A stretch of DNA of 48,277 nt, taken from an uncultured Planctomycetales bacterium. GTDB lineage: Bacteria; Omnitrophota; Gorgyraeia; Gygaellales; Profunditerraquicolaceae. The notes beneath the pieces are model-generated. The model searched no databases. It saw only the letters and a list, made by a program, of their open reading frames with translations, and was not told where the DNA came from. The stretch covers positions 124,771 through 173,047 of the forward strand of contig CAZYCL010000005.1 of NCBI GenBank assembly GCA_964645795.1, in the 5' to 3' direction. Positions 1 to 15,664 of the stretch are shown one piece after another. Numbering within the stretch: position 1 is the first letter of the stretch; each line of letters opens with the position of its first letter. Position numbers and translations under genes: made by a program.

Positions 1-22
1 CGGGAGAACCGGCCGAGTTTAA

Positions 23-97
23 TGTCCCCAACCGGATTTGAACCGGTGTCGAGAGCTTGAAAAGCTCTTGTCCTAGACCAGGCTAGACGATGGGGAC
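23..97 (-). tRNA. tRNA-Glu (anticodon TTC), CCA not encoded
   Basis: Reverse complement GTCCCCATCGTCTAGCCTGGTCTAGGACAAGAGCTTTTCAAGCTCTCGACACCGGTTCAAATCCGGTTGGGGACA folds as a cloverleaf: acceptor GTCCCCA/TGGGGAC, anticodon stem AGAGC/GCTCT with loop TTTTCAA, T-loop TTCAAAT. Confidence 0.95.
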
Positions 98-336
98 TGT
101 CTTTCAATCAAACCTATCAAATAACCCTTGTCTTTACGACGCTTAATTTCGTTTTCTCGTTTGCGCTCTTCGGTTCGGGTTTTAAACTCTTCTTTGTAAA
201 TAACCTTGAGCGGTCCTTTATGCTTTGTGGATCTAACGCTATTCTGATTGTGCCTTTTTAGTCTTGCCTCTAAATCTTCGCAGCTGCCCGTATAATGCCA
301 GCCGTCTTGATTTGCCAAAACATATACGTAATACAT
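73..336 (-). CDS. Small GIY-YIG nuclease family protein (UPF0213-like), 87 aa; last 8 codons overlap the tRNA-Glu 5' end
   Basis: YYVYVL...WHYTGSCEDLEARLKRHN...RSTK...EEF...KRENEIK matches the GIY-YIG pattern (two Tyr-containing strands, conserved Arg, His-Asn and Glu). Confidence 0.85.
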   Translation of the reverse strand: MYYVYVLANQDGWHYTGSCEDLEARLKRHNQNSVRSTKHKGPLKVIYKEEFKTRTEERKRENEIKRRKDKGYLIGLIERQSPSSSLV

Positions 337-352
337 TTATGTCGAGAGCTTG

Positions 353-421
353 TCCCGGCACCCTAGTTTTTTTATTCTAGGGCCGGGATCCCGCCGCCTG
401 AACCGATCTGGGGCTGCGGGA
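353..421. repeat. Tandem pair of TCCCG...CGGGA mini inverted-repeat elements (36 and 33 bp)
   Basis: 353-388 tcccggcaccctag-T-rich-ctagggccggga and 389-421 tcccgccgcc...ggggctgcggga, inserted in the anticodon loop of the tRNA copy. Confidence 0.9.
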
Positions 422-446
422 AAAAGCTCTTGTCCTAGACCAGGCT

Positions 447-506
447 TCCCGCCAGGCCATCATATAGAGGGCGGGATCCCGCTCGCTATCCAATAGCCTA
501 GCGGGA
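447..506. repeat. Tandem pair of TCCCG...CGGGA mini inverted-repeat elements (30 and 30 bp)
   Basis: 447-476 tcccgcc...ggcggga and 477-506 tcccgct...agcggga, inserted between tRNA nt 13 and 14. Confidence 0.9.
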
Positions 507-526
507 AGACGATGGGGACTATATAT

Positions 527-2959
527 TTACTCTTCCTCTTCGGCGATCACATGCGCCACACAGGAAACCCTATCTTTATCAGCTATCTTGATCAGGCGCA
601 CTCCCTGGGCAGAACGTCCGGTTTCCCGTATATCCTTTACCGCACACCTCAAGAACATGCCATTCTGGGTGATCACCATCAACTCGTCATTATCGGTGAC
701 GGGCTTAAGATTTACTGCCTCACCGTTTTTGTCGGTCACTTTGATATTAATAATGCCTTTGCCGCCGCGGCTGGTCAGGCGATACTCTTGGGCGAGCGTG
801 CGCTTGGCAAATCCGCGCTCCGTAACCGTTAAGATCGATGAGTCTTTGCTTACAAGGATCATGTCGATAACCTGGTCTTTTTTTGCCAAAGAAATGCCCC
901 TTACGCCTCCTGCCCCCCTGCCCATATCCCGGACTTTGACTTCGGAAAACCTGACGGCTTTTCCTTGACGGGTAGCAATCAAGAGCTCCTGCTTGCCGTC
1001 GGTAAGTTCGACTCCGACCAGGGCATCGTCCTTGTCCAGGCTTATTCCGATGATCCCGCCTTTGCGAGGATTGCCGTAGGCGTCCAGCTTGGTCTTTTTG
1101 ATCTTGCCGGTGCGGGTGACCATGACCAGGAACTTGTCCGGGGAAAACTCTTTTACCGGAATAGTGGAGCTGATTTTTGCCCCGGCTTCCATATGAACGA
1201 GGTTTACGATAGCCTTACCCTTGGAGGCGCGACCGGCCTGAGGGATCTCATAGACCTTAAGCCAATGCACCTGCCCCTTATCGGTAAATATCAACAGGTG
1301 ATCCTTGGTGGAGGCAACGAAGAGGTGCTCGACGAAATCCTCCTCCTTCACTTCCGCCCCTGTCACGCCTTTTCCGCCGCGCTTCTGTTTGCGGTAAGAC
1401 GACACCGGCAGACGCTTTATGTAGCCGCCGTGGCTGATGGTGACAACCACGTCTTCTTCGGCGATCAGGTCTTCCACTTCCAGCTCCGCGACCTCTCCTA
1501 CTATATCGGTGCGGCGCTCATCCCCATACTTCTTCTTCAGGTTTTCCAGCTCATCCTTAATAATGGCTTCTATCTTCTTCTCGGAGGCCAGTATCGCCCG
1601 GCACAGTTCTATTTTTTTCAAAAGCTCTGCGTATTCGGCGTCGATCTTGTCCCGCTCAAGCGCGGTAAGCCGCTGAAGCTGCATCTCCAGTATCGCCTGG
1701 GCCTGGATCTCCGAAAGATCGAACTCCTTAACAAGGTTTTTACGCGCGTCGTCCGTGCTCTTGGACGTCTTAATGGTCTTGATGATCTTATCTATGAACT
1801 TAAGGGCTATCTTTAGCCCTTCCAGGATGTGAGCCCGTTTTAGCGCCTTATCCAGCTCAAACTGCGTCCTGCGCCTGATGATGACCTTGCGGTGCTCAAC
1901 ATAAGCCTGCAGCATCTGGTGCAGATTGAGTACTTTGGGCCGGTTGTCAACGAGCGCCAGCATTATGACTCCGAAGGTTGTTTCCAGTTGTGTGTGCTTA
2001 AAAAGAAGGTTGAGTACTATCTGCGGCTCGGTGTCGCGTTTAAGCTCAACTACAATGCGCAGGCCGTCTTTGTCAGACTCGTCGCGTATATCGGATATTC
2101 CTTCCAGTTTTTTATCGTCGACCAGCTCGGCTATCGCTTCGATGATCGAGGCCTTTTGCACCTGATAGGGTATCTCGGAGATGACTATCAGGTCTTTGCC
2201 GTTCTTCTGGTGCTCTATCGTGGCCTTGGCCCTTACCGTAAGCTTTCCTCTGCCCGTGGTATAAGCATCCTTGATCCCTCCTTTGCCGCAGATAATGCCG
2301 CCGGTGGGGAAATCCGGCCCCTTAACGTGGCGCATCAGATCCTTTATTGGTGCTTCGGGATTATCCAAGAGGTAAATAGTGGCGTCGGCTACCTCATTTA
2401 AATTGTGCGGAGGGATATTGGTGGCCATGCCTACGGCTATGCCGCTTGAGCCGTTGACCAGCAGGTTAGGCAGGGCCGCGGGCAATAGCAGCGGCTCCTT
2501 CAAAGAGGCATCAAAGTTCGGCCCGAAGTTGACGGTTTCTTTATCGATATCCTCCAGCATCGCCTCGGAGATCGCTGCCAGTCGCGCTTCCGTATAGCGC
2601 ATCGCCGCTGCCGTGTCGCCGTCGATCGAACCGAAGTTACCCTGACCGTCAACCAAGGGATAGCGCAAAGAGAAATCCTGGGCCATCCTTACCAAAGTAT
2701 CGTATACCGCCACATCGCCGTGGGGATGATATTTGCCCAGGACCTCGCCGACGATACGGGCGCACTTCTTAAAAGGTTTGGAGTGGTCCAGGTTTAACTC
2801 CTGCATGGCGTAAAGGATCCTGCGGTGCACGGGCTTCAAGCCATCGCGCACATCCGGAAGCGCCCTGCCTACGATTACGCTCATGGCGTAATTAAGATAG
2901 GAGTCCTTGACCTCCTCTTCGATATAAACCGGGATTATCTTTTCGTTTCGCGTATACAT
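527..2959 (-). CDS. gyrA: DNA gyrase subunit A
   Basis: [30 protein letters not shown] (catalytic Tyr), GyrA-box QKRGGKG and C-terminal beta-pinwheel repeats; start placed at ATG 2959 (MYTRNEK) because the ORF-track extension runs into a repeat. Confidence 0.98.
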
Positions 2960-2961
2960 TG

Positions 2962-3039
2962 AATGAGGCCGCAACGCTTTGCTAAACCCAGCAAGGCGTT
3001 GTATGGCCTAATTAATCCCGCCGAGGCTACGAGGCGGGA
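2962..3039. repeat. Composite palindromic element: 52-bp AATGAGGCC...GGCCNAATT hairpin plus a 24-bp TCCCG...CGGGA hairpin
   Basis: Ungapped 37/52 match to 15229-15280 with compensatory stem changes; both copies are followed 2 nt later by TCCCG...CGGGA (here 3016-3039). Confidence 0.8.
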
Positions 3040-15228: not shown

Positions 15229-15334
15229 AATGAGGCCATAATACTTTGCCGGGCCCGGCAAAGTATTGTTGGGCCGAATTTCTCCCGAGCTTGCACTGAA
15301 CCGCCAACAGCGGTCAATGCGTATAAGCTCGGGA
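15229..15334. repeat. Second copy of the composite palindromic element (52-bp hairpin plus 52-bp TCCCG...CGGGA hairpin)
   Basis: Contains the perfect palindrome AATACTTTGCCGGGCCCGGCAAAGTATT; TCCCGAGCTT...AAGCTCGGGA at 15283-15334; homologous to 2962-3039. Confidence 0.8.
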
Positions 15335-15351
15335 CTCAATACTTAAATTCC

Positions 15352-15587
15352 GGGCGGTTAGTTCAATTTAAATTTTCCGACAAGGAAAATTTAAATTGAT
15401 CCTTTTCGAACGTCGTTTTGCGACAAGCAAAACAGTGAGAAAAGGATCTAATTGTTGGATAGCACAGAGGATTTCGGGCGGTTAGTTCAGCCCCTGCAGA
15501 AAGCGCAGGGGCTCCCGCGGATGCAAAAAGCGCATCCTTGGTCGTTGGTAAAAGGTGTTCACTACCCGCCAGCGACTAAAAGATTTC
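15352..15587 (+). pseudogene. Two aborted 5' copies of tRNA-Val, each followed by paired hairpins
   Basis: GGGCGGTTAGTTCA at 15352-15365 and GATTTCGGGCGGTTAGTTCAG at 15470-15490, the latter identical to 15582-15602 (leader plus nt 1-15 of tRNA-Val). Confidence 0.8.
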
Positions 15588-15664
15588 GGGCGGTTAGTTC
15601 AGTTGGTTAGAACGCCACATTGACATTGTGGAGGTCACAGGTTCGAGTCCTGTATCGCCCACCA
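15588..15664 (+). tRNA. tRNA-Val (GAC), CCA encoded
   Basis: Cloverleaf with anticodon stem CCACA/TGTGG, loop TTGACAT, T-loop TTCGAGT, 3' ACCA. Confidence 0.96.

Follow-up and report, generated by a model that had tools for sequence, protein, structure and literature searches.

The phage T4 gene segB, a free-standing GIY-YIG homing gene, lies in the tRNA gene cluster of the phage (PMC2330249), and free-standing genes of this kind can drive local amplification (PMC13096335). In fungal mitochondrial DNA, mobile endonuclease open reading frames (ORFs) bring a duplicate gene end with them, and Allomyces has double-hairpin elements (Paquin et al. 2000, as cited in PMC3787672). A survey of the superfamily treated prokaryotic Slx1-like GIY-YIG proteins as minimal and for the most part vertically inherited, and did not settle whether further members are parasitic (Dunin-Horkawicz et al. 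2006; PMC1564403). Here we describe a small GIY-YIG cassette in a 48,277-nt stretch of DNA from an uncultured bacterium of the Omnitrophota (GenBank assembly GCA_964645795.1, contig CAZYCL010000005.1), to which we refer as the window. Next to gyrA, a stand-alone GIY-YIG ORF and an intact tRNA-Glu gene sit between the two parts of a second, hairpin-bearing tRNA-Glu gene, and this split-tRNA design recurs at other tRNAs and in other phyla. We judge it moderately probable that this is a selfish, homing-like cassette nested in a tRNA gene, and one of a family of small elements inside bacterial tRNA genes.

The feature is read on the minus strand within positions 1-560 of the window (Table 1). A sequence-only reading of the window had proposed the order gyrA, 5' partial copy of tRNA-Glu, GIY-YIG ORF and intact tRNA-Glu, and this order was present as proposed, with the ATG of the ORF 4 nt beyond the partial copy. 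When the inserts are removed from this copy (remnant A, tRNA nt -1 to 49), it matches window positions 47-98 at 52/52 positions, the same count as before. ARAGORN and Rfam detect one tRNA-Glu in 1-560, the intact gene at 23-97(-) only. The break had been placed at the junction of the variable loop and the T stem (nt 49|50), and a 3' remnant (B) does start at nt 50. As remnant A stops at nt 49 and remnant B begins at nt 50, the inserted DNA probably corresponds to window 13-339, a block of 327 bp that comprises the ORF, a complete tRNA and 10 nt. The idea of an inserted cassette was therefore kept, while its size was corrected from ~290 to ~327 bp, and the block probably carries the whole tRNA-Glu and a 10-nt spacer rather than only a new 5' half. 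As had been claimed, the cassette has no integrase or transposase: the insert holds the ORF and the tRNA only, and no integrase or recombinase was found in the insert or in the neighbouring gene tables and flanks examined. The nuclease ORF lies outside any intron or intein, between the conserved gyrA and tRNA-Glu. Four points were absent from the sequence-only reading, namely the 3' remnant, the paired hairpins in each insert, the exact insert sites, and the overlap of the ORF with the tRNA. The ORF enters the intact tRNA by 25 nt, and its last 8 codons (SPSSSLV*) are read from tRNA nt 1-25.

Table 1. Layout of the gyrA-tRNA-Glu locus in the window, in minus-strand order (tRNA nt, position in tRNA-Glu).
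Feature	Position or length	Strand	Remarks
gyrA	527-2974	-	815 aa; conserved upstream neighbour; stop codon 527-529; anchor for the search for empty and filled alleles
Spacer from gyrA stop to remnant A	7 nt	-	empty alleles have the intact tRNA at this point
Remnant A, segment 1	507-520	-	tRNA nt -1 to 13; equals 85-98
D-loop hairpin pair	447-506 (60 nt)	.	between tRNA nt 13/14, at the D-loop start; hairpins 447-476 and 477-506
Remnant A, segment 2	422-446	-	tRNA nt 14-35; 25/25 identical to 60-84
Anticodon hairpin pair	353-421 (69 nt)	.	between tRNA nt 35/36; hairpins 353-388 and 389-421
Remnant A, segment 3	340-352	-	tRNA nt 36-49, CAAGCTCTCGACA; 13/13 identical to 47-59
Junction TAA, 3 nt	337-339	-	separates remnant A from the ATG of the ORF
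GIY-YIG ORF	73-336	-	87 aa; stand-alone catalytic domain of the UPF0213/Slx1-like type
Intact tRNA-Glu(UUC)	23-97	-	CCA not encoded; ARAGORN; Rfam tRNA, 61.2 bits; functional copy linked to the nuclease gene
Spacer ttaaactcgg, 10 nt	13-22	-	after the intact tRNA; closes the inserted block on its 3' side; similar short spacers at L001, L025 and L088
3' remnant B	6-12	-	CCGGTTC, tRNA nt 50-56; directly continues the end of remnant A at nt 49
Hairpin start TCCCG	1-5	-	inserted after nt 56 (T loop) of remnant B; cut by the window edge

Complete structures homologous to this truncated T-loop hairpin are present at four related loci (L001, L088, L090 and L107). The 181-nt stretch that holds remnant A and its inserts (340-520) folds at -48.3 kcal/mol, compared to -30.0 +/- 3.7 for shuffled sequences (z = -4.9). 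A promoter and terminator scan of window 1-700 found none. Rfam, searched at E <= 1 on the window locus and nine related loci, returned tRNA only, with no match for the hairpins or for the ~130-nt noncoding cassettes of two relatives described below. A group I intron, a ribozyme or a known small RNA was excluded for both on this ground. A group I intron in the tRNA anticodon loop was likewise rejected, as Rfam found no ribozyme core and the inserts are only 60-69 nt.

The ORF had been called GIY-YIG in the sequence-only reading, and its product matched Pfam GIY-YIG (PF01541) over residues 1-70 at 52.1 bits against a cut-off of 22.6. Residues Y5, Y15, G17, R25, H29, N30, E61 and K65 are invariant among 24 homologs; Y5, Y15, R25, H29 and E61 are equivalent to Y6, Y17, R27, H31 and E75 of I-TevI. 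AlphaFold predicted a confident beta-beta-alpha-beta-alpha-alpha GIY-YIG fold (pLDDT 83), in which the last 6 aa form a disordered, tRNA-encoded tail. The only sequence matches in the PDB were the UPF0213 proteins BH0048 (1zg2, E = 8e-13) and EF2693 (1ywl, E = 2e-7), both deposited as hypothetical or uncharacterised proteins. The same two entries ranked first and second when the predicted model was searched with Foldseek, followed by Slx1 and the catalytic domain of I-TevI, and NCBIfam gave only a sub-threshold match to a group I intron endonuclease. Neither the Pfam match nor the predicted model revealed a separate DNA-binding domain such as those of I-TevI and the Seg proteins; there is the catalytic core alone. 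By sequence and predicted fold, the protein is a minimal, stand-alone GIY-YIG protein of the Slx1/UPF0213 type and a putative nuclease without an auxiliary domain. It resembles the stand-alone Slx1-like and UPF0213 proteins in being a minimal domain, and these provide its best matches in both sequence and fold; unlike here, the 2006 account of Slx1-like proteins (PMC1564403) describes no link to tRNA genes or hairpins. A profile search recovered 14,238 cluster representatives at E <= 1e-3, mostly of 80-130 aa. The ORF was intact in 12/12 copies examined, and dN/dS was 0.08-0.20 among unsaturated homolog pairs, which indicates purifying selection. Two database proteins of 205-214 aa (P0032 and P0033) have two GIY-YIG stretches each and are probably read-through calls over tandem cassettes like that of L086.

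Homologs of the ORF are annotated as Candidatus Omnitrophota. Most of 31 homologs end in ...SPSSSLV/A or ...(D/V)PIV, and these endings are two reading frames of GTCCCCATCGTCTAG, the tRNA-Glu 5' end, so the ORF adjoins tRNA-Glu throughout the family. The order gyrB-gyrA-ORF-tRNA-Glu was found in 3/3 homolog contexts fetched by exact protein look-up. With the gyrA C-terminus as an anchor, the locus was then taken from 80 Omnitrophota species representatives. The ORF was present in 9/80 (filled loci), tRNA-Glu without the ORF was found in 63/80 (unfilled loci), and in 8/80 the contig ended too early, which left 72 scorable species. The tRNA starts at most 30 nt from the gyrA stop in 47/63 unfilled species. 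The empty allele presupposed by the sequence-only reading is thus the majority state. In the gyrA tree, filled alleles are scattered among empty ones in one large clade; L001 lies outside it, and the most distant clade has none. The filled locus L013 and the empty locus L016 are collinear at 88% identity save for a clean ~324-bp indel bounded by the tRNA 5' repeat. Fragments of the 3' remnant occur in 6/9 filled compared to 5/57 unfilled loci (p = 3e-4), and the unfilled loci that have one (e.g. L010 and L030) look like former carriers that would have lost the ORF by recombination between the 5' repeats. Decayed copies also exist: at L019 the ORF is reduced to 'atgacgtatatta' while the remnant and hairpins stay, and the copies at L098 and L118 have a premature stop and a truncation, respectively. 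Many contigs of metagenome-assembled genomes (L005, L006, L008, L014, L018 and others) end within about 100 nt after gyrA, probably as assembly breaks due to the repeated tRNA pieces.

All filled loci share the order gyrA, 5' remnant, ORF and intact tRNA, with the ORF-tRNA junction constant at tRNA nt 1. The junction between remnant and ORF varies, at ~nt 22 (L021, L039), ~26-30 (L013, L042, L050, L055) or ~44-49 (window, L001-L003, L025, L057). At L107, L090 and L088, remnants A and B add up to one tRNA-Glu that has a hairpin pair in each of its three loops and is interrupted by the ORF and the intact tRNA, and tandem arrays occur at L021, L088 and L130. The tRNA-Glu haplotypes are few and discrete, differ by compensated acceptor- and T-stem pairs (L005-L084), and are scattered over the gyrA tree. 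This spread suggests that the tRNA gene may have been exchanged between lineages. At L021, type II (GACCCTG...CAGGGTC) is found in both remnants, as it is in L051 and L018, which are the nearest empty alleles; the intact tRNA there is of type III. At L090, both remnants are of type I and the intact tRNA is of type III; at L088, type I is found in remnant A and the distal B, type II in the intact tRNA and the proximal B. Since A and B have one functional haplotype and the intact tRNA another, the remnants look like two halves of one former functional gene. From its haplotype, the intact tRNA looks like a different allele that would have arrived with the ORF.

The age of the cassette relative to its flank was estimated from L092 and L093, the least diverged pair. 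At conserved codons, third positions were identical at 53/64 in the ORF compared to 57/97 in the adjacent gyrA end (p = 0.0017), and the noncoding remnant and hairpins were identical at 92/97 positions. The ORFs are more alike than the gyrA ends, which suggests that in this single pair the cassette is younger than its flank. At L092 519-533, and at the equivalent place in L093, TGATAGATTCA stands before the 5' remnant and repeats the bases with which the ORF ends ahead of the intact tRNA; the remnant there accordingly comes from a tandem cassette unit and not from the resident gene.

The association with tRNA genes extends beyond tRNA-Glu. A metagenome scan with the family alignment yielded 80 loci, and while each close homolog adjoins tRNA-Glu, 70/80 of these distant relatives adjoin some tRNA on the same strand, of eleven amino-acid identities (Glu, Ser, Met, Asn, Pro, Gly, Gln, His, Leu, Asp and Ala). 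The tie of the ORF to tRNA genes, on which the sequence-only reading depended, was thereby extended. The ORF precedes the tRNA in 41/70, usually with an upstream 5' partial copy of the same tRNA; 23 of the 41 have tRNA-Glu and the others Ser(GGA), Met, Asn, Pro, Gly, Gln or His. In the remaining 29/70, the ORF comes after an intact tRNA (Leu, Pro, Asp or Ala) and is mostly followed by a 3' partial copy. The partial tRNA-Ser copies have hairpin pairs of the CCGCC type between nt 35 and 36, and partial copies of tRNA-Gly and tRNA-Ser have hairpin pairs in the D loop. Single (T/C)CCCGA...TCGGG(A/G) hairpins replace the anticodon or T arm in the tRNA-Leu, Pro, Asn, Asp, Gln and Met lineages, and tandem arrays of ORF and pseudo-tRNA occur at L130 and L134. 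The tRNA-Leu lineage belongs to the Bacteroidota, and TCCCGA...TCGGGA hairpins replace arms of its partial copy. This arrangement was confirmed in the cultured Mucilaginibacter aquaedulcis (GCA_030409325.1) and Pedobacter xixiisoli (GCA_005925365.1).

Each insert in the window consists of two tandem hairpins, all four of which begin with TCCCG and finish with CGGGA, a pattern matched 8 times in the window compared to 2.1 expected. Each insert is a short G+C-rich unit that folds into two consecutive stem-loops, as double-hairpin elements do. Across the 48-kb window and 494 kb of related loci, hairpin pairs were found only inside tRNA-Glu fragments, at 13|14, 35|36 and, in 3' remnants, 56|57. 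The anticodon site 35/36 is also occupied in L001-L003, L025, L085-L097 and L107, and the D-loop site 13/14 in L013, L021, L039, L042, L055, L090 and L107. In the Omnitrophota set, 7/9 filled compared to 1/63 unfilled loci have hairpin pairs (p = 2e-7). The inserts are a conserved component and not incidental decay, and are nearly restricted to loci that have, or once had, the nuclease gene. Among 129 distinct hairpins, covariation is seen at stem positions 6-8; G.T and A.C mismatches in this set number 2 and 0, too few to tell RNA from DNA structure. An identical 35-nt hairpin occupies the anticodon site of remnant A and the T-loop site of remnant B at L090, one hairpin is nested within the loop of another at L001, and in remnant B of L021 the anticodon-site flank is joined to the T-site flank via one hairpin pair. 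These patterns suggest that the hairpins behave as copied units. The motif accompanies the protein family across phyla, which argues that it may be recognised or produced by the nuclease rather than arising by random decay. Two simpler origins were considered. The window's D-loop pair together forms a palindrome with 35-nt arms and 80% complementarity, so an inverted duplication of one hairpin would describe this pair; it does not hold in general. An origin from the local tRNA acceptor stem (CGGGA/TCCCG in tRNA-Pro) was rejected because the same motif is found beside tRNAs whose acceptor stems differ.

Beyond the cassette, the window has two solitary TCCCG...CGGGA hairpins, one at 3016-3039 in the gyrB-gyrA spacer (7-bp stem) and one at 15283-15334 between tRNA-Cys and the tRNA-Val repeats (10-bp stem). 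The tRNA-Val(GAC) gene at 15588-15664 has two extra upstream copies of a 6-nt leader and nt 1-15 (region 15346-15664). The resulting 21-nt direct repeat is present three times, 124 and 112 nt apart, with a double-hairpin spacer after each extra copy and no ORF. It is a 5'-end duplication like that of tRNA-Glu, without a nuclease gene.

In function, the cassette appears most similar to the free-standing GIY-YIG homing genes, such as T4 segB, and to those endonuclease ORFs of fungal mitochondria that come with a duplicated gene end. Like segB, it is a GIY-YIG gene outside an intron or intein, lies among tRNA genes, is inherited with its flanks and is polymorphic for presence and absence. Local segmental amplification is also shared, here as the tandem units of L021, L088 and L130. 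SegB is a larger protein with a separate DNA-binding part and cuts a defined phage DNA site during co-infection. In contrast, the window protein has only the 70-80-aa catalytic core and belongs to the Slx1/UPF0213 branch, and the cassette resides in bacterial chromosomes, where it interrupts the tRNA gene itself and brings a substitute tRNA along with conserved hairpins. For the fungal ORFs, the atp6 case of a mobile endonuclease ORF duplicating the displaced gene end was reportedly described by Paquin in 1994. As far as such ORFs are summarised in PMC3787672, the cassette shares with them an endonuclease ORF in an essential gene, a replacement gene end and a displaced end left as a remnant, whereas the fungal ORFs are organellar and lie in protein-coding genes, and the ORF here comes from a different GIY-YIG branch. 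In that same summary, the Allomyces elements are likewise short, G+C-rich, composed of two consecutive stem-loops and seemingly mobile; they are dispersed over intergenic regions and rRNA variable regions, whereas the hairpins here are limited to three loop positions of displaced tRNAs.

Like integrative elements that target tRNA genes (attL/attR), the cassette is inserted in a tRNA gene, restores an intact version of it and leaves a partial duplicate. It differs in having no integrase, in measuring 0.3 kb and not kilobases, and in duplicating the 5' part or both parts instead of the 3' end. Archaeal non-canonical tRNA introns and split tRNAs also have insertions in the D, anticodon and T loops and tRNA pieces encoded apart; in contrast, the host here is a bacterium that has an uninterrupted gene right beside the interrupted copies, which are incomplete. 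By eye, no pairing of tRNA segments with inserts was evident, no formal bulge-helix-bulge search having been run, and the archaeal splicing endonuclease is not known from bacteria. We accordingly class the cassette neither as an integrase element nor as a group I intron, and consider an archaeal-type intron improbable as well. We found no description of tRNA-nested, stand-alone GIY-YIG cassettes in the literature. We would place the cassette with the homing-type selfish nuclease cassettes, and there is a real chance that its hairpin-based mechanism is new.

As a selfish, homing-like element, the cassette would spread between genomes by recombination, for which the tRNA sequence and neighbours such as gyrA would provide the homology. 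Breaks made by the nuclease in tRNA genes would stimulate recombination and be repaired from a cassette-bearing template; such putative homing-type cleavage of empty alleles had also been envisaged in the sequence-only reading. Target choice would come mainly from the tRNA homology carried by the cassette, perhaps also from recognition of stem-loop structure. The protein has no recognition domain, yet its lineages occupy different tRNAs, and so target choice is probably due to the carried homology. Recognition of stem-loops would fit the kinship with Slx1, since Slx1 is described as cleaving branched DNA (PMC6902002). The hairpins would be a working part of the element and may be bound or cut by the nuclease. 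They would also break the direct-repeat homology, in the window into segments of 14, 25 and 13 nt. RecA-dependent recombination needs roughly 23-27 bp in E. coli. A repeat cut into such segments would hinder RecA-dependent precise deletion, and the host would thus stay tied to the linked tRNA.

Several points weigh against this reading. The 87-aa protein has no DNA-recognition domain, and because the intact tRNA and the remnant are the same in sequence (52/52), a nuclease aimed at the tRNA should cut the filled allele too; filled-allele immunity, and the hairpin-free state of the intact tRNA, could be explained only by selection. The mRNA of the ORF would have its stop codon inside a tRNA that RNase P would cut off. 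Within Omnitrophota the cassette was seen only at the gyrA-tRNA-Glu locus, and this single location, together with saturated synonymous sites, means that much of the patchy distribution is accounted for by vertical inheritance over a long time and recurrent loss. Pairwise identities of the GIY-YIG proteins and gyrA are uncorrelated (rho 0.07), which may merely reflect saturation; as synonymous sites are saturated between most copies, we do not count this value as evidence of transfer. The evidence for a cassette younger than its flank comes from the one pair L092/L093. The 3' remnant is missing in the filled loci L002, L039, L055 and L092, the filled locus L050 is without typical hairpins, and the hairpins of the tRNA-Ser lineages are of the CCGCC and not the TCCCG type. 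Moreover, no relatives were found in phage records, and five weak matches in viral contigs had no tRNA nearby, so a phage or virus as vector was rejected.

A more elaborate possibility, which we regard as tentative and on balance doubtful, is that the cassette is a natural 'cleave-and-rescue' drive and represents an unrecognised class of bacterial element, in which a structure-specific, minimal GIY-YIG nuclease attacks tRNA genes at the three cloverleaf loops. Synthetic 'cleave and rescue' drives link a nuclease tightly to a working copy of an essential gene and destroy the resident copy. In a natural counterpart, the TCCCG...CGGGA hairpins would be installed at the breaks and would permanently disable the resident gene, and the linked intact tRNA would rescue the host and make it dependent on the cassette. 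Specificity would come from the carried tRNA homology, which could place one protein family on at least 11 tRNAs in several phyla. Unlike the synthetic drives, this would be a natural element whose rescue copy is not recoded; the likeness lies in the predicted design.

The presence of the ORF in only 9/72 scorable species, interleaved with empty alleles, also bears on a quite different account, in which the locus is old, vertically inherited and domesticated. Here the protein would have a host function at the gyrBA-tRNA-Glu operon, e.g. in processing, repair or regulation, and the empty alleles would be secondary losses. Such losses are mechanistically easy to make precise because direct tRNA repeats flank the ORF, and purifying selection with saturated synonymous sites, the constant location of the gene in Omnitrophota, the lack of phage or viral copies and the mostly vertical inheritance inferred for prokaryotic Slx1-like proteins (Dunin-Horkawicz et al. 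2006; PMC1564403) are all consistent with service to the host. We nevertheless consider it unlikely, given not only the interleaved distribution but also the degenerate copies, the different functional haplotypes of remnant and intact tRNA, the L092/L093 cassette that is younger than its flank, the tandem arrays (L021, L088, L130) and the recurrence of the split-tRNA design around many unrelated tRNAs and neighbourhoods.

The strong predicted structure of the hairpin-bearing tRNA pieces raises the question of whether they are functional RNAs, acting as a scaffold or partner of the nuclease, as a decoy, or as a split or intron-containing tRNA, with the ORF and the RNA forming one defence or regulatory module. 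The conservation of the hairpin motif across phyla alongside the protein family, the 52/52 identity of the window remnant and the anticodon-like loop retained by the arm-replacing hairpin in some lineages (tRNA-Met, tRNA-Leu) point in this direction. In contrast, the extent of the fragments varies widely (A to ~nt 22, 26-30 or 44-49; B present or absent), the remnant haplotype is often unable to pair with the neighbouring pieces (L003, L085), no Rfam family matches, and an intact tRNA always lies beside the remnants. Wobble-pair strand asymmetry, expected for RNA, was not seen, although the counts of 2 and 0 are uninformative. We therefore think a functional RNA quite improbable.

tRNA genes are well-known targets of integration, which leaves a part of the tRNA duplicated. 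This established behaviour would allow the tRNA pieces to be leftover attachment sites of integrase-driven elements, with the GIY-YIG gene as surviving cargo, and the same junction in relatives does hold other small insertions (an intervening-sequence protein gene, a HEPN/nucleotidyltransferase pair and the ~130-nt cassettes). Such an origin is very unlikely, since no integrase was present in any gene table or flank examined, the entire insert measures ~330 bp, the duplication covers either the 5' end or both ends of the tRNA, the ORF is anchored at tRNA nt 1, and the minimal ORF-tRNA unit recurs in more than 80 loci. Finally, a mis-joining of tRNA repeats during metagenome assembly, which the many contigs ending within the locus might suggest, has next to no probability, because the duplication recurs in an ordered architecture with lineage-specific differences in dozens of independent assemblies, including a 1.55-Mb contig and cultured Bacteroidota.

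If the cassette is indeed a selfish, homing-like element, it would provide a biological role for stand-alone UPF0213/Slx1-like GIY-YIG proteins, of which the 14,238 cluster representatives are the measure. A selfish element could then settle in essential, highly conserved RNA genes by carrying a spare gene with it, and would need neither an intron ribozyme nor an integrase. How an 87-aa protein finds tRNA genes, with conserved hairpins at exact loop positions, is a puzzle of targeting for which the cultured carriers (Mucilaginibacter, Pedobacter) are tractable hosts. The cassette would probably also account for assembly breaks at gyrA-tRNA-Glu in Omnitrophota, and it calls for caution, as tRNA haplotypes there may be exchanged between lineages. 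Possible uses include a compact, structure- or homology-guided nuclease and a natural drive-like design.

The gyrA-tRNA-Glu junction of other Omnitrophota holds further insertions and rearrangements. At L010 3991-4226, where there is no ORF, a T-arm fragment with a hairpin pair lies between two copies of a 55-nt unit, and tRNA-Glu nt 63-76 comes after each copy; this looks like the footprint of earlier 3'-side events. At L037 3333-3618 and L041 3959-4102, a different noncoding cassette of ~130 nt follows a duplicated tRNA-Glu nt 1-15, with a conserved core AAATGAGCACATAATTTA...GATCCTCC...GGAGGA, two tandem units in L037 and no Rfam match. Two selfish-looking insertions occupy the same junction, namely a truncated gene for a 23S rRNA intervening-sequence protein (PF05635) at L030 4059-4229 and a pair of HEPN and nucleotidyltransferase genes at L040 2219-2913. 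In two species (L030 4544-4602 and L050 4284-4347), a 3' copy of tRNA-Glu has its whole anticodon arm swapped for the identical mini-hairpin ccccgccgtaggcgggg, and the copy in L050 gives a weak tRNA-like score (mascRNA model, below threshold). Lastly, L003/L004 1-3874 carries a gyrB intein (HNH) and a gyrA intein with a LAGLIDADG endonuclease, and the gyrA of the window is intein-free; with these inteins, the locus hosts three kinds of selfish nuclease elements.

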